This document shows positions 9,298-38,006 of a stretch of 38,006 nt of DNA, piece after piece (positions within the stretch are counted from its first letter, which is position 1; each line of letters opens with the position of its first letter). Under the pieces are notes generated by a model that worked only from the letters and a program-made list of their open reading frames with translations, did not search any database and was not told the origin of the DNA. The translations under genes and the position numbers were made by a program. The DNA comes from a virus (Duplodnaviria > Heunggongvirae > Uroviricota > Caudoviricetes). Where the stretch lies: positions 1 to 38,006 of IMG/VR virus record IMGVR_UViG_2778261277_000017; one strand, 5' to 3'.

Positions 9298-9459
9298 ATG
9301 ACAAAACGTCGTAAGAAATACCAGGAAAAAGAAGAGATTCGACACCCTGATTCACCTGAGGGATTAGTGGTAGCCGCAGCAAATAACAGGGCGTTCGCAG
9401 AACGCCTTGTTGGTGTTTACAGACTAGCCAAAGCAGGAGTGAAACATGGGCGTCGTTAA
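9298..9459 (+). CDS. Small basic hypothetical protein (53 aa) between cII and the O-like gene
   Basis: ATG at 9298 preceded by AGGAG at good spacing; [53 protein letters not shown]. Overlaps the O-like start by 14 nt. Below the ORF-track cutoff. Confidence 0.4.
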   Translation: MTKRRKKYQEKEEIRHPDSPEGLVVAAANNRAFAERLVGVYRLAKAGVKHGRR

Positions 9460-10267
9460 GTTAGCTGATTACAGGCCTCAACTGGAGGTCGTGGAGCATC
9501 GCGTGGCAGATACCGAAGATGGTTTCATGCGCGTTGCTAACGAGATTACCGACAGTCTGCTGATGGCTGATTTAACCGTCCGGCAGTTGAAGGTGATGCT
9601 CGCTATCATGCGCAAGACATACGGATTCAATAAGCCGATGGATCGACTCACAAACACGCAGATAGCAGCCATGACAGGTATTCATCACACTCATGTTTGC
9701 GCTGCCAAGCGCCAGCTTATTGAGCGTAAATTCCTCATTGCTGATGGCGTGAAAATCGGAGTGAACAAGGTGGTTTCTCAGTGGATTAGCCAGGACAGCT
9801 TAACATTAGCTAAAACAGCTAATAAAACATTAGCCAAGTCGGCTAATGGGTATAAGCCAAGTCAGCTAAACACAAAAGACAATATACAAAAGACAATAAA
9901 TACAAATACCCCCTTACCCCCTAACGGGGGCGGCGATGGGCAGGTTAAACCTGAACGTCGCAAGGCAGAACGAATCGACTACGAATCCTTCCTGAACGCC
10001 TACAACACCGAAGTCGGTGACAGACTTCCACACGCTGTTGCGGTCAACGAGAAACGAAAACGCCGCCTGAAGAAAATCATCCCGCAACTGAAAACGCCAA
10101 ACGTGGACGGTTTCAGAGCGTATGTCAGGGCGTTTGTGCATCAGGCCAAGCCGTTTTACTTCGGAGACAACGACACGGGCTGGACGGCTGATTTTGATTA
10201 CCTGCTGAGAGAAGATTCGTTAACGGGAGTTCGTGAAGGGAAGTTTGCAGACAGGGGGATTGCATGA
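9446..10267 (+). CDS. Replication initiator, phage O-like
   Basis: N-terminal region [34 protein letters not shown] resembles the lambda O DNA-binding domain as recalled; AGGAG Shine-Dalgarno; ATGA overlap with the downstream helicase. Confidence 0.8.
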
Positions 10268-30954: not shown

Positions 30955-32022
30955 ATGTCACAGAACTGGATGAGACATTTCGAGCTGCAGCTTGTGGACG
31001 GGAACGGTCAGGGAATTGAGCTAAGTGATTTCAAAGTCACCTTTACGATCGACTGGTTCAACATCAGCAGCGCGTCCCGGGTAGGGACTATCAAAATTTA
31101 TAACCTTTCGGCAGATACTGTGAACCGAATTACCGGGCAGGAGTTTTCGAAAGTGCGGCTGATTGCCGGTTACGACGGTATCGCGCCGGAGGTGGCGGCA
31201 AGCGACGTCGGGACCGTGCGCGAAGTCGACGCGGCAGATGTGGGCCAGAGTGATGGCCGCAACTACGGGCTGATTTTCAGCGGAGAAATTCGCTACTCGG
31301 TCACAGGAAAAGACAGCCCTATTGATTCCTATGTCCTGATTCAGGCAGCAGATACGGATCTGGCATTTGCCACCAGTATAACCTCGCAGACGCTGGCGGC
31401 CGGTTACACGGTCGCAGATGTGAACCGTGCGCTGATGAAAGACTTTGAGGCCAAAGGCGCGACCGAAGGACTGACGCCTGAAATGCCTGCTACCGTATTC
31501 CCTCGAGGGCGGGTGCTGTTCGGCATGACACTGCATCTTATGGATAACGTGGCCGGACAATGTGGCGCAACATGGCAATTTGTGGACGGTCAGCGCCAGA
31601 TGGTGGCGAATAACGAGTATGTTCACGACGCGATTGTGCTCAACAGCGCCACCGGGCTTATCGGCATGCCGCAGCAGACTATCGGCAACGGTGTAAACGT
31701 CCGCGCTCTTATTAATCCGAACATCCGGGTTAACGGGCTTATTCAGCTGGATCAGGCTTCCGTGTACCGCACCGCGCTGTCGAACAATGATATTGCGATG
31801 GCTGGTGGGCAGATCACCGACCAGAACACGGACGGAAATATCACGCTCAGCGGCACCACAGCACAACCTGCCAGCATCGCAACGGATGGCGTTTATATTG
31901 TGCGCGGGATTATGTACACTGGCGATACAAGGGGCCAGGCGTGGTACATGGATATGATGTGCGAAGCGCGTGGCGCGGCGGATCTTCGTTCTGCGTCGTC
32001 TTTACAGCGTGAGGTAGGATAG
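30955..32022 (+). CDS. Baseplate hub-like protein
   Basis: 355-aa ORF following the tape measure-proximal genes. Confidence 0.5.
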   Translation: MSQNWMRHFELQLVDGNGQGIELSDFKVTFTIDWFNISSASRVGTIKIYNLSADTVNRITGQEFSKVRLIAGYDGIAPEVAASDVGTVREVDAADVGQSDGRNYGLIFSGEIRYSVTGKDSPIDSYVLIQAADTDLAFATSITSQTLAAGYTVADVNRALMKDFEAKGATEGLTPEMPATVFPRGRVLFGMTLHLMDNVAGQCGATWQFVDGQRQMVANNEYVHDAIVLNSATGLIGMPQQTIGNGVNVRALINPNIRVNGLIQLDQASVYRTALSNNDIAMAGGQITDQNTDGNITLSGTTAQPASIATDGVYIVRGIMYTGDTRGQAWYMDMMCEARGAADLRSASSLQREVG

Positions 32023-32375
32023 TGAAAAAGTGGATTGTTATCGGACTCTGTTTCCTTCCGGGGTTAGCATTTGCTGCGAATCCTGGCGGTATCACGCTTC
32101 AGTGTGGTGGCTACAAATTAGAGTTGATTCCTGATTCATTGTTCAGGATTAATGGTGAGACAGTTACCTCTCAGAAAATCAAAACGCTCGGCAACGGTAA
32201 TGGAATGAAGGCGGATATGGGTCTTATGCCAGCCAAAGACGGTAACAATTACGCTTTCGAGTTCATTCGTCGCCCTGGTACCGAAACGCGTTTCCTGAAC
32301 GTCCAGCTTCTGCAGAACAGCATGGATGCACCGAAAATCATCGGCTCCTTCCCGTGTAAAAAGGTTGATGGTTAA
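32022..32375 (+). CDS. Small secreted protein with Sec signal peptide, embedded in the baseplate module
   Basis: MKKWIVIGLCFLPGLAFA|ANPGG: n-region, hydrophobic core and AxA cleavage motif; no lipobox Cys. 117 aa. Lower GC than flanking tail genes. Confidence 0.6.
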   Translation: MKKWIVIGLCFLPGLAFAANPGGITLQCGGYKLELIPDSLFRINGETVTSQKIKTLGNGNGMKADMGLMPAKDGNNYAFEFIRRPGTETRFLNVQLLQNSMDAPKIIGSFPCKKVDG

Positions 32376-32515
32376 CCAAAAGTTACATTTCTGCATAGTG
32401 TTGAGTTTGTTCACATTCACTAAATAATGATTTTTTATCGCTTGCTAGGTGGTTGCATGATCACTAAACTTTGCGAACTTTTAGCGCTCAGCTAACTTTG
32501 AATAAGTGGTGTATA

Positions 32516-32530
32516 GTCGTTTAAAACGAC
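32516..32530 (+). promoter_or_regulatory. Palindromic candidate operator overlapping a -10-like TATAGT upstream of the 190-aa gene
   Basis: GTCGTTT-A-AAACGAC perfect 7-bp inverted repeat; TATAGT at 32512-32517; about 14 nt upstream of the AGAGGGA Shine-Dalgarno of the next gene. Confidence 0.4.
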
Positions 32531-32543
32531 AGAGGGATTGGGT

Positions 32544-33116
32544 ATGGCGATTAGCTACGCATTTGCGCTGGCAACAATTACACAACAAATGAATCAGGTT
32601 CAGGAAGCTGTTAACGGTGCTTTCAAACCCCTGATCTCTAATGCTTGTGAACTGCCACAACGATTAGATGCTGAAGAGGTATTTCGTCGTTGTACCGCGA
32701 TTGCTGCACGCGCTCAAGAAATCGAAAATACCGCGAAGGAAGGCATGTCTCATCTCGAAGCTTTTCGAAATGGGAGAATCATTGTTGATGAGCTTCCGGA
32801 AGAGTTTTTATCCCATCTCGAAGGTCTTGCCAAGGCATGCCGAAATGCTAAAGGACATTTAGTGGATATGTTCTCTGAAGCGGAAAGGTCCCCTATGTGG
32901 CAAGGCCATCTGCAAATGTTGCGCCCATTAAAACGCAAATATGTTCGTGCGTTGACCGCCGTCGAGAACACTGCAACTCAGTTGGCCGCTGAAGTTAGGC
33001 AATCGCAGCCTTTCCAGGCTGAACTCTTGTCAGATAATGTTACCCGTGAAGAGGCTATTGAACTGATCTCAACATCGCATAAGATGCTGGGAGCCAACGC
33101 CCCTAAATGGATGTGA
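32544..33116 (+). CDS. Hypothetical 190-aa helical protein, upstream partner of the YafO-like gene (candidate antitoxin/regulator of a novel type)
   Basis: ATG at 32544 with AGAGGGA Shine-Dalgarno; 1-nt gap to the downstream gene. Far larger than, and unlike, the Phd/YefM-type antitoxin YafN that partners YafO in E. coli. Confidence 0.6.
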   Translation: MAISYAFALATITQQMNQVQEAVNGAFKPLISNACELPQRLDAEEVFRRCTAIAARAQEIENTAKEGMSHLEAFRNGRIIVDELPEEFLSHLEGLAKACRNAKGHLVDMFSEAERSPMWQGHLQMLRPLKRKYVRALTAVENTATQLAAEVRQSQPFQAELLSDNVTREEAIELISTSHKMLGANAPKWM

Positions 33117-33117
33117 C

Positions 33118-33534
33118 ATGGCAAAAGTCAGTATCACGGGAGAATTGCGTCATTTAGCTGCAGCACATAAGTATGCTCAAATGCTTGCCGATTATATTTC
33201 AAAGGGTTCCCAGTTCTGGTGTTTTGGTTCGTTAGGCGGTTTTGAACGTAACTATGATGCGATGGCTGCCAACATCAGGAAAATTCACTTAAAGCTACCT
33301 GGCGATAAACCCTGGCCTCCAGAAGCATCTCTGAGTGAACGGACATGTGATAATTTTTTGGTATATGCTCAGCATCTTTATATCGATGAACACTATCAGA
33401 TATTGGCAATCATCAGCCCAAACGCTCATCAGCAAGCTGATTCGATGCTTCCCCGGCTGATAAAATTAGCAGAGGAAACCTTCATAGAACTTCCTCCTGA
33501 TGAACTCGAAAAATTGAAAACCTACGATTCATAA
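33118..33534 (+). CDS. YafO-family toxin-like protein (ribosome-dependent mRNA interferase family), tentative
   Basis: 138-aa ORF. Segments ADYISKG, KIHLKLPGDKPWPP, FLVYAQHLYIDEHYQILAIISPNAH and RLIKLAEETF align with what I recall of E. coli YafO (ADFISYK, HIHLANENNPFPP, HLVYCQGAFDEQAWLLIAILKPEPH, KIGKMAEAF). Recall-based, unverified. Confidence 0.6.
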   Translation: MAKVSITGELRHLAAAHKYAQMLADYISKGSQFWCFGSLGGFERNYDAMAANIRKIHLKLPGDKPWPPEASLSERTCDNFLVYAQHLYIDEHYQILAIISPNAHQQADSMLPRLIKLAEETFIELPPDELEKLKTYDS

Positions 33535-33535
33535 A

Positions 33536-33557
33536 CCCGCCACCCGGCGGGTTTTTT
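33536..33557 (+). terminator. Strong rho-independent terminator closing the cargo cassette
   Basis: CCCGCC-ACCC-GGCGGG hairpin followed by TTTTTT, directly after the stop codon at 33534. Confidence 0.8.
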
Positions 33558-33576
33558 GCTTTCTGGAGCCTACTAA

Positions 33577-34329
33577 ATGGCAGTATCTGACCAGACCCGC
33601 AGCGGCGACCTTGCCGAAACATTCAAATCTGAACGGGAAACAACAAAGAATCAGATCCGTGTCGCCTTGCCTGGCATTATTCAGTCATTCGATCCTGATG
33701 CGGTGACGGCGGTTGTGCAGCCTGCTATCCGTTCGGTTGAAAAGGATAATGACGGCAACCGCATTACCAAAAATTACCCATTGTTGGTGGATGTTCCAGT
33801 GGTATTCCCACGTGGCGGAGGATGTACGCTAACGTTTCCGATTAAAGCCGGGGATGAGTGTCTTGTCGTTTTTGCCGATCGTTGTATTGATTTCTGGTGG
33901 CAGAGCGGCGGAATACAGGAACCGGTCGATGACAGAATGCATGATTTATCGGATGCGTTTTGTATTGTAGGCCCCCAGTCGCAGGCGAGGAAGATTAGCG
34001 GTATTAATACCAGTGCCACACAGTTGCGTAGTGACGATGGCAGCACCTATTTTGAGCTTAATCCTGATACCAGGAAAATTAAAATTGTCGCTCCGGGTGG
34101 TCTTGATGTGGTTGCCCCTCTGGCTGATTTTTCTGAGAAAGTAACCATTCATGGCCTGTTAACCTGGATGGGGGGCATGGTGGGGTCTGTTGTTTCTGGT
34201 GTGGCTTCAAAAATCACTGGTGTTGTTGAGTTTTTGGGTAGCGTGAAGGCTAACGGCAAGCCAATCGATGATACGCACACTCATGGCGGTGTTCAGCGCG
34301 GTGGAAGCAATACCGATGGGGTAAACTGA
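33577..34329 (+). CDS. Baseplate spike / gpV-like protein
   Basis: 250-aa ORF with GGAG Shine-Dalgarno; Gly-rich C-terminus (THTHGGVQRGGSNT) typical of gpV-like spike proteins. Confidence 0.55.
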   Translation: MAVSDQTRSGDLAETFKSERETTKNQIRVALPGIIQSFDPDAVTAVVQPAIRSVEKDNDGNRITKNYPLLVDVPVVFPRGGGCTLTFPIKAGDECLVVFADRCIDFWWQSGGIQEPVDDRMHDLSDAFCIVGPQSQARKISGINTSATQLRSDDGSTYFELNPDTRKIKIVAPGGLDVVAPLADFSEKVTIHGLLTWMGGMVGSVVSGVASKITGVVEFLGSVKANGKPIDDTHTHGGVQRGGSNTDGVN

Positions 34330-37255: not shown

Positions 37256-37696
37256 ATGCAGAAATATATTTTCAGTGCCGATAAAAATGCGTTTTTCCCT
37301 GTGGAGCTTAAAATCGCTTATCAGGAATCCGGCGAATGGCCCGATGATGGAATCGAAATTGACGACACTGTTGCTGCCGAATTTATGAAGGAAGCACCAG
37401 AAGGAAAATACAGAGGTGTCATCGACGGAATGCCTGCATGGATTGATATTCCACCGCCAACTCATGAGGAACAAATTGCCGCAGCCGAACTGAAAAAGCA
37501 GCAATTGATTAATCAGGTCAACGAATACATAAACAGTAAGCAATGGCCTGGTAAAGCGGCGATTGGTCGCCTGAAAGGTGAGGAACTGGTGCAATATAAT
37601 TTGTGGCTGGATTATCTGGACGCACTGGAACTGGTCGATACTTCCGGTGCGCCAGATATTGAATGGCCTACGCCTCCGGCAGTTCAGGCCAGATGA
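37256..37696 (+). CDS. tfa: Tail fibre assembly protein (Tfa)
   Basis: 146-aa ORF with conserved Tfa N-terminus (MQKYIFSADKNAFFPVELKIAYQESGEWPDDGIEIDD) and C-terminal ...DIEWPTPPAVQ. Confidence 0.85.
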   Translation: MQKYIFSADKNAFFPVELKIAYQESGEWPDDGIEIDDTVAAEFMKEAPEGKYRGVIDGMPAWIDIPPPTHEEQIAAAELKKQQLINQVNEYINSKQWPGKAAIGRLKGEELVQYNLWLDYLDALELVDTSGAPDIEWPTPPAVQAR

Positions 37697-38006
37697 CATC
37701 CGGTGCGGTGCTGGTATCTGTTGCCGTCACCGCGTCAATATAATCCAGCACAGCGTTAAGTCGGGTGTTTTCTGGCTGCGTCAGCTTCCGCCCGGCCTGT
37801 AATTTCAGTTGAATCAGACCGATGGAAGCCATTGCAGCATCAATCAGCGACTGGCGCTTTACTTCTGCCGCGTCTAGTGCGGCGCTATGCTGTGCCTCGG
37901 TATCCGTCACCCATTTCTCACTATCCCATTTATCGTATGGCGTTAATGGGGCGATAGTGGTTGTATTTTCAGGGTAATCACCCGGAACTGTGATTTCTTT
38001 GGTATC
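37668..38006 (-). CDS. Second, oppositely oriented tail fibre assembly protein (alternative Tfa of an invertible segment); 5' end beyond the window
   Basis: Minus-strand frame open to the window edge, ending ...LDYIDAVTATDTSTAPDVIWPELPEA, parallel to the plus-strand Tfa C-terminus; the two 3' ends overlap by 29 nt. Confidence 0.7.
   Translation of the reverse strand, partial: DTKEITVPGDYPENTTTIAPLTPYDKWDSEKWVTDTEAQHSAALDAAEVKRQSLIDAAMASIGLIQLKLQAGRKLTQPENTRLNAVLDYIDAVTATDTSTAPDVIWPELPEA

Follow-up and report, generated by a model that had tools for sequence, protein, structure and literature searches.

A conserved promoter motif and a predicted two-hairpin leader upstream of a YafO-type cassette in a prophage tail operon

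IMG/VR record IMGVR_UViG_2778261277_000017 is a virus sequence of the Caudoviricetes, and its positions 1–38,006 (the whole stretch of 38,006 nucleotides (nt), here termed the window) represent the nearly complete genome of a temperate phage, which includes a baseplate module for a contractile tail. The subject of this report is the non-coding gap at positions 32376–32543 of the window together with the two genes that follow it, which encode a 190 amino acid (aa) protein and a 138-aa YafO-family toxin. The gap appears to consist of a conserved promoter and a two-hairpin mRNA leader that belong to a mobile YafO-type cassette, the cargo of a prophage tail operon, and the hairpins would act in cis. 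We place the probability of this interpretation at roughly 0.62. The element is ordinary in kind, i.e. the promoter and structured 5′ untranslated region (UTR) of a moron before a type II-like toxin-antitoxin (TA) pair; a moron is a unit with its own promoter and terminator that is expressed from a repressed prophage (PMC3594210). What is new is the conserved leader motif, the family of the 190-aa partner protein and the position of the promoter, which is relocated relative to a reading of the single sequence.

The gap and its landmarks

Direct reading shows that the gap is 168 nt long. It follows the stop codon of a 117-aa open reading frame (ORF), which ends at position 32375, and runs up to the ATG of the 190-aa ORF at 32544; alignment of the 190-aa protein family shows that this ATG (MAIS...) is the start kept across the family. 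The neighboring genes overlap or abut. The original prediction, which was made from the window sequence alone, described a 168-bp non-coding stretch in a tightly packed operon, and this agrees with the coordinates and with the arrangement of the flanking genes. The landmarks it named are also present. GTCGTTT-A-AAACGAC is a perfect 7+1+7 inverted repeat at 32516–32530 that shares the last two nt of the hexamer TATAGT (32512–32517), and the Shine-Dalgarno sequence AGAGGGA ends 6 nt before the ATG. A LexA-box-like CTGT-N8-ACAG sequence, with one mismatch allowed, is absent within about 800 nt, as had been stated. The features of the gap, all on the + strand, are as follows (P1 denotes the putative promoter discussed below).

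32376–32429, +: context-specific spacer after the 117-aa gene, outside the conserved cassette and alignable only with relatives in the same slot (L026, L083)
32430–32438, +: T-tract ATTTTTTAT, UP-element-like, at the left edge of cassette conservation; 4–6 T precede CTTGC in most core-clade loci, in unrelated contexts
32442–32447, +: predicted −35 hexamer TTGCTA of P1; (C/G)TTG(C/A)nn in nearly all 30 upstream regions compared
32465–32470, +: predicted −10 hexamer TAAACT of P1; TA(A/C)ACT is kept across the family, with TAAGCT, TAGAAT or TAAAAT in a few members
32481–32495, +: hairpin 1, TTAGC-GCTCA-GCTAA; stem with compensatory changes and a free loop, predicted at −4.5 kcal/mol
32496–32515, +: U/G-rich linker, predicted to be single-stranded; its length is roughly kept, its sequence is not
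32516–32530, +: hairpin 2, i.e. the palindrome, made up of GTCGTTT (32516–32522), A (32523) and AAACGAC (32524–32530); as RNA a stem of 6 bp with a 3-nt loop, which abuts the Shine-Dalgarno sequence
32531–32537, +: Shine-Dalgarno sequence AGAGGGA; (A/G)AGGG(G/A) is kept 6–9 nt before the ATG in all loci

The gap contains two small ORFs of 22 and 28 aa, neither of which is conserved among relatives. The 22-aa ORF, MIFYRLLGGCMITKLCELLALS at 32427–32495, spans the putative promoter and hairpin 1. It is probably not a leader peptide, since its ATG is lost in L026, a relative that is 90% identical.

The promoter motif and the TATAGT hexamer

Upstream sequences were collected from about 90 loci and compared as 30 distinct variants. 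The loci came from species genomes (3 loci), viral contigs, metagenomes and exact-protein look-ups, and the last three sources supplied the diversity. Conservation runs from the T-tract to the ATG and all sequence farther upstream is specific to the context; thus the spacer at 32376–32429 is unrelated to the upstream sequence of loci in other contexts.

The −35 and −10 hexamers of P1 are separated by 17 nt (18 in a few loci), and the sequence of this spacer varies freely. Retention of two hexamers around a free spacer is the footprint expected of a promoter. Exceptions to the pattern are L055, with its weak −35, and L089, for which the −10 was assigned by visual inspection. Between the end of the −10 and the ATG there are 71–78 nt in 28 of the 30 variants and 86 nt in L077; the scripted figure for L089 (62) refers to a wrong hexamer. 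Compared with the sigma-70 consensus, TTGCTA matches at 4/6 positions and TAAACT at 4/6 (with T1, A2 and T6 present) across the 17-nt spacer. From these comparisons, positions 32442–32470 probably represent a conserved sigma-70-type promoter, which would be the main promoter of the cassette, with a predicted transcription start near 32476–32477.

A consensus scanner reported a single match in the gap, TTGAGT-16-AATAAT (32401–32428). This was rejected as the cassette promoter, as the number of matches is at chance level and the sequence lies outside the conserved block. Its −35 is altered in relative L026.

TATAGT had been proposed as the −10 element, and the palindrome that overlaps it as the mark of an autoregulated, antitoxin-repressed promoter. 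In its full form this alternative holds that TATAGT is the −10 of the cassette and that the palindrome serves as an operator to which the 190-aa antitoxin binds, by itself or together with the toxin, in the manner of type II TA autoregulation. Autoregulation through palindromes that overlap the promoter is the norm in type II TA systems. In the window the palindrome is perfect and TATAGT matches the −10 consensus at 5/6 positions; in addition, TATAGTCGTT is kept in relatives of at least about 73% identity, in several contexts. However, the best −35 candidate located 16–18 nt upstream of TATAGT is CAGCTA, with 2/6 matches, and an extended TGn element is absent, the TG being at −14/−13 and not at −15/−14. 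In distant relatives that retain the stem, with protein identities under about 73%, TTTATG, TTTAAG, TTCATG, TCTTGT, TTTTGG or GATTAG stands in place of the hexamer, and three relatives that keep TATAGT (L022, L026 and L027) already have a U·G pair in the stem. P1, about 47 nt upstream of TATAGT, is kept in essentially all genomic contexts. Thus the prediction of a promoter in this interval stands, with P1 as the promoter, and TATAGT is unlikely to be its main −10 element. A secondary promoter at TATAGT may exist in the window's own clade.

The leader as RNA

The predicted leader is about 68 nt long and has two inverted repeats, one at 32481–32495 and the other the palindrome at 32516–32530. 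The palindrome is located 46–60 nt downstream of the conserved −10 and about 40–55 nt inside the predicted transcript; TATAGT is formed by the 3′ end of the linker and the first two nt of hairpin 2. Hairpin 1 starts 2–5 nt after the transcript start in every clade, the start itself being a prediction.

The stems of both hairpins are found with different sequences in different relatives. For hairpin 1 the arms are TTAGC/GCTAA, TTATC/GATAA, CTAGC/GCTAG, ACAGC/GCTGT or GACAAC/GTTGTC, and an intermediate form, TTAGC/GCTAG, has a U·G pair. Hairpin 2 occurs as GUCGUU/AACGAC, GUCGA/UCGAC, GGUCC/GGACU or GGUCA/UGGCC, and in the most divergent clade as a GC-rich stem, GCCGAAGU/ACUUCGGC. The change from GTCG/CGAC to GTCC/GGAC is compensatory. 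Predicted stability of hairpin 2 ranges from −5.6 to −7.4 kcal/mol across the core variants and is −5.7 kcal/mol for the window copy.

A covariance model was built from 11 seed leaders and aligned 27 leaders, 23 of them distinct. It missed L007, L048, L055, L088 and L089, and these leaders were folded and examined by eye. Among the 23 distinct leaders, 99.6% of alignment cells are paired, compared with 94.5 ± 0.8% in shuffled controls and 10–49% with slid partners, in an alignment that is itself fitted to the model. Four of the 23 leaders have gaps in helix 2; in the remaining 19, which have letters in both of its arms, pairing of this helix is 100%. Double-sided changes occur at three pairs, and there are eight further pair types. 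One-sided changes are all UA to UG or CG to UG, with no A·C; in helix 2 they are U-A to U·G in all 15 cells. L077, L089, L088, L007 and L048 are additional covarying leaders outside the model.

The one-sided changes show that the constraint is strand-specific, because positions that form G·U pairs on the + strand would be C·A mismatches on the complementary strand. In each of the 30 variants the + strand leader folds more stably than its reverse complement. The GTCG and CGAC arms are 5, 6, 7 or 8 nt apart among relatives, a variation of 3 nt, and the loops have no fixed sequence. Such freedom fits poorly with a rigid operator that binds a dimer but is expected for a hairpin. Together with the compensatory changes and the location outside the conserved −10, these properties speak against the proposal that the palindrome is an operator placed over a −10 element. 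Judged from the comparison of sequences, the palindrome is most likely an RNA stem-loop beside the ribosome-binding site and not a repressor-binding site. To our knowledge, from an informal comparison, it has no convincing resemblance to operators of the LacI-family, PurR, Cra, TrpR, TyrR or ArgR type.

As a feature of a single sequence the palindrome is unremarkable. Among random 168-mers generated with a first-order Markov model of matching composition, 7.4% include a repeat of this kind, and in the 38-kb window there are 16 perfect inverted repeats whose arms are 7 nt or longer and whose spacers are 0–5 nt. These counts, and the ordinary folding energy of the leader (given below), would suit a functionless inverted repeat that arose by chance. 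This is very improbable, since compensatory or wobble changes preserve the stem in every one of about 30 distinct homologous leaders while the linker and loops diverge. It is on this ground that the palindrome is considered real.

Several observations weigh against the interpretation of the gap as P1 plus a two-hairpin leader. P1 matches the consensus at only 8 of 12 positions and was not reported by the consensus scanner, which requires 9/12, and TATAGT is conserved inside the window's own clade. The whole leader is thermodynamically ordinary relative to shuffled controls (z = 0.18), and the argument rests on comparison and not on energy because this value is non-significant. Both stems are short (−4.5 and −5.7 kcal/mol). 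Covariation is modest, at 3 of 11 pairs within the model alignment, and, as the leaders are phylogenetically related, significance is exaggerated by the shuffle statistics. A palindromic operator, too, can change in both of its half-sites if the binding protein co-evolves, and the N5 spacing of hairpin 1 is constant in the core clade, which leaves a DNA-level role less well excluded for that repeat. Finally, the roles given to the hairpins, in stability or in translation, are ones that we infer.

If the preferred interpretation is correct, P1 would allow expression of the cassette from a repressed prophage, independently of the late tail operon, and both hairpins would act in cis on the mRNA. 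Hairpin 1, being proximal to the 5′ end, probably protects against 5′-end-dependent decay (RppH/RNase E). Hairpin 2 is adjacent to the Shine-Dalgarno sequence and within the footprint of the 30S subunit; its predicted stability stays near −6 kcal/mol across variants, and it probably sets translation initiation, decay or read-through. There is a precedent in the ompA/papA-type leaders, where 5′ stem-loops stabilize the mRNA (Emory 1992; Bouvet and Belasco 1992; Arnold 1998; Bricker 1999; in the account given in PMC3997798). As in the ompA-type 5′ UTR, a hairpin near the 5′ end is followed by a single-stranded linker and a second hairpin before the Shine-Dalgarno sequence, and it is the pairing and not the sequence that is conserved. 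However, the leader described here is about 68 nt long compared with 133 nt, there is no sequence homology, and its 5′ end is predicted.

The most divergent clade, at 44–52% protein identity (L007, L048, L055 and L088), keeps the promoter motifs, hairpin 1 and the spacing. At the position of hairpin 2 these leaders have a GC-rich stem of 7–8 bp, with a predicted stability of −9 to −14 kcal/mol; TTTTTGT comes after it, about 29 nt upstream of the ATG, and a terminator scan calls this hairpin. From its sequence the divergent-clade leader resembles an attenuator or a terminated RNA of small size; here hairpin 2 may have been turned into a full terminator-like attenuator that tunes read-through. 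The window copy is not of the intrinsic-terminator type, since it is AU-rich and is followed by AGAGGGA, with no U-tract. Taken across the clades, the sequences suggest that what is selected at hairpin 2 is control of the message, or of the translation, that reaches the toxin-antitoxin genes, with a clade-specific implementation. As hairpin 2 shifts between a weak stem adjacent to the Shine-Dalgarno sequence and a full terminator, these leaders provide a natural series for the tuning of toxin expression.

The divergent leaders raise the alternative that hairpin 2 is primarily an attenuator or pause site, such that mostly a short leader RNA is made, read-through reaches the genes and the window copy is a weakened terminator. 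In addition to the terminator-like stems of the divergent clade, this alternative has in its favor that there is no space for another promoter downstream of the stem. On the other hand, the core-clade stem is AU-rich and weak, it runs into AGAGGGA in place of a U-run, and no alternative anti-terminator pairing is evident. Such a primary role is considered improbable. The arrangement in the divergent clade, i.e. promoter, short structured RNA and terminator-like hairpin before the genes, is similar to the leader terminator of the type III system toxI-toxN. It differs in that tandem RNA repeats are absent, the window copy lacks a U-tract, and the toxin, a member of a type II family, is paired with a protein.

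Another alternative is that the hairpins are RNA sites bound or cleaved by the YafO-type RNase or bound by the 190-aa protein, in post-transcriptional autoregulation. In favor of this, selection acts on the structure at the RNA level, toxins of this family degrade mRNA (PMC11980606), and the sequence CTTTGCGRAC around the predicted start is conserved beyond structural need. Against this, free loops and drifting stems are unusual for a specific protein-RNA recognition site, and the 190-aa protein shows no evidence of an RNA-binding domain. We regard this alternative as quite unlikely. To a similarly small degree it is conceivable that the leader is a regulatory RNA in its own right, one of the three parts of a new toxin system in which the 190-aa family would be a new class of YafO antitoxin that does not bind DNA. 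If so, the divergent clade would release a terminated small RNA of about 55 nt, and the leader RNA would act on the YafO-type RNase or on the 190-aa partner as a decoy or antitoxin, or would be an attenuator that senses phage infection.

A further helix, CTTTG at 32469–32473 with CAGAG at 32530–32534, was obtained with RNAalifold on a MAFFT alignment. It was rejected as part of the leader, as it shows no covariation and is partly outside the P1 transcript. The plain MAFFT alignment had misplaced hairpin 2 of the shorter variants and was superseded by the covariance-model alignment. The CTTTG sequence overlaps the end of the −10 and can pair with CAGAG, which runs from the 3′ end of hairpin 2 into the first nt of the Shine-Dalgarno sequence. 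Since the 5′ half of this helix is upstream of the predicted P1 start, it could form only in transcripts that read through from the tail operon, and it might make read-through and P1 messages translate differently.

An Rfam scan of positions 32200–33700 with E-values up to 10 gave nothing in 32376–32560 and only weak matches on the downstream terminator. On the evidence of these sequences the leader is a newly described conserved motif without an Rfam family.

The cassette, its partner protein and its setting

The remaining parts of the cassette are as follows.

32544–33116, +: 190-aa gene, putative antitoxin of the toxin; phrog_35514, function unknown
33118–33534, +: 138-aa YafO-family toxin gene; Pfam PF13957 (YafO_toxin), E-value 4e-17, 62.6 bits with a cut-off of 25
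33533–33562, +: intrinsic terminator AAACCCGCC-ACCC-GGCGGGTTT followed by a T-run, which closes the cassette; terminator scan, 9 pairs, 6 of them GC

The match of the 138-aa protein to PF13957 agrees with the RefSeq PGAP label in E. coli AR_452, “type II toxin-antitoxin system YafO family toxin”, and supports the reading of the two genes as a cassette of toxin-antitoxin type. The match to NCBIfam PRK09885 is weak. Wherever the neighboring gene calls were examined, a YafO gene of 137–138 aa is located at +1 nt from the end of the 190-aa gene, and 28 of the 30 distinct loci have an ORF of toxin size downstream of the 190-aa gene. YafO-family toxins degrade mRNA and their gene order is antitoxin then toxin (PMC11980606). 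The 190-aa protein is likely to be an antitoxin on the basis of this order, and it would be one of an undescribed kind.

The 190-aa protein has 34 homologues with 44–97% identity; those with a named source are all from Enterobacterales or their phages. No Pfam domain is present in the protein or in these homologues, and profile searches gave no Phd/YefM match. The AlphaFold2 model, based on the family alignment, is all-alpha with a mean predicted local distance difference test (pLDDT) score of 78.7 and has five long helices at residues 3–31, 43–75, 86–115, 123–154 and 168–181. A Foldseek search of the model against the Protein Data Bank (PDB) gave no match with E < 0.001, and a profile search of PDB sequences with the 190-aa family gave nothing. 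Searches of the sequence, the model and known folds did not detect a fold of the helix-turn-helix, ribbon-helix-helix, AbrB or Phd type. A PADLOC search gave no defense-system match for either the 190-aa or the 138-aa protein.

These properties bear on the proposal that the 190-aa protein is the repressor of the cassette. A predicted five-helix bundle in which no DNA-binding fold is recognizable removes the positive support for binding of an antitoxin to the palindrome, although it does not disprove DNA binding. In addition, the N-terminal 40 residues of the family are nearly invariant while the leader stem sequences change. With the evidence on TATAGT and on the stem, the operator reading is not supported and is regarded as unlikely; autoregulation as such is possible. 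Compared with the operators of relBE, phd-doc and ccdAB, the palindrome is likewise an inverted repeat close to the first gene of a TA-like operon. It is unlike them in that it lies downstream of the conserved −10 and inside the predicted transcript, arm spacing is variable, G·U pairs are tolerated, and the partner protein has no recognizable DNA-binding domain. The annotation is corrected accordingly, i.e. the promoter lies elsewhere than a single-sequence reading puts it, and the eye-catching palindrome would be a feature of the mRNA. Experiments designed around an antitoxin that binds an operator probably would fail, and start-site mapping and reporters with compensatory mutations would be informative.

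The host element is a SEN34-like (Brunovirus-type) prophage, and the cassette is located between the baseplate-hub/117-aa genes and the spike gene. The related phages vB_EcoM-606R2, Salmonella SEN34 and Yersinia YP3 share the flanks and have different genes in the middle. Homology to these phages stops at 32365–32376 and resumes at 33533/33534 (33577 in YP3). The guanine-plus-cytosine (GC) content is 0.43–0.47 across 32000–33600 compared with 0.50–0.57 in the surroundings. The pair of the 190-aa and YafO genes is found in the same hub/spike slot elsewhere. In unrelated settings it comes after a tape-measure gene of the lambda type (L087), lies in the tail region of a siphovirus (L055) or adjoins a gene for a type I restriction enzyme in Serratia (L053/54). 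The 168-bp interval is present in identical form in 37 of 5,426 complete E. coli genomes, in each case in the chromosome. A distant BLAST search of the same 5,426 genomes for a paralogous leader on other cargo gave only the same 37 prophage copies.

By its sequence organization the unit formed by the promoter, leader, 190-aa gene, YafO toxin gene and terminator is a classic moron in the variable hub/spike slot. It resembles phage morons of the HK97 gene 15 type (the Juhala/Hendrix concept; PMC3594210) in that extra DNA lies between two conserved tail genes, related phages lack the insert or have the position filled differently, and the GC content of the insert is below that of the flanks. It also appears to have its own upstream promoter and downstream intrinsic terminator within a late tail operon. 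It is unlike them in that the right-hand terminator is common to phages with other cargo and may belong to the slot, and that expression from the repressed prophage is here a prediction.

The part of the terminator at 33533–33554 is common to 606R2 and SEN34, which hold other cargo in the slot. An equivalent terminator, AACCCGCC...GGCGGGTTTT, follows the toxin stop codon in most other contexts. The divergent clade (L007, L048, L055 and L088) has no terminator after the toxin, and downstream of the toxin gene it shows a conserved non-coding motif, CTTGCTTCCC(A/T)TTGC...CCCGCTAGGATTTATC.

A close comparison is the E. coli yafN-yafO pair (dinB-yafNOP). In both cases the toxin is of the PF13957 family and follows its partner gene with a 1-nt gap. 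However, the 190-aa partner is all-helical and unrelated to YafN, which is of the Phd/YefM type, there is no LexA box, and the cassette is prophage-borne, with a structured RNA leader instead of a recognized operator. The cassette is thus not a strict yafNO member, as it has neither YafN nor LexA control. It is a candidate prophage-encoded defense or stabilization module with a new antitoxin family. The comparison defines a small mobile cassette that is found across the Enterobacterales and rides in the tail operons of several unrelated prophage types.

The hub-spike interval (30955–33577) is a hot-spot for cargo (L002, L003 and L004). SEN34 has one unrelated 138-aa gene there, 606R2 has a 170-aa gene, and YP3 has a 266-aa gene that comes after its own gap of about 170 bp. 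As the right-hand terminator is common to elements with different cargo, cargo exchange by recombination between conserved flanks is suggested. The product of the 117-aa gene before the gap (32022–32375) is a member of phrog_3443 (function unknown) and has a signal peptide, MKKWIVIGLCFLPGLAFA/ANPG, at its N-terminus. The gene is about 70% conserved at the DNA level in related phages and its GC content, about 0.46, is below that of the structural genes.

Two other observations concern distant parts of the window. The palindromes ATTAGCTAAAACAGCTAAT (9805–9823) and ATTAGCCAAGTCGGCTAAT (9829–9847) are near-identical, each of a 6+7+6 form, and are located 24 bp apart inside a 273-aa ORF (9446–10267, + strand) that is upstream of a 458-aa ORF. 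They look like paired protein-binding sites, e.g. origin- or iteron-like sites in a replication gene. Their half-site TTAGC resembles that of hairpin 1, with a spacing of N7 compared with N5.

Near the right end of the window a 146-aa ORF (37256–37696, + strand) that resembles tail-fiber-assembly proteins meets head-on an 80-aa ORF (37668–37910, − strand). The latter resembles the C-terminal part of another protein of the tail-fiber-assembly type. By analogy, the arrangement at 37256–37910 is typical of invertible tail-fiber segments such as those of the Mu G or P1 C type.

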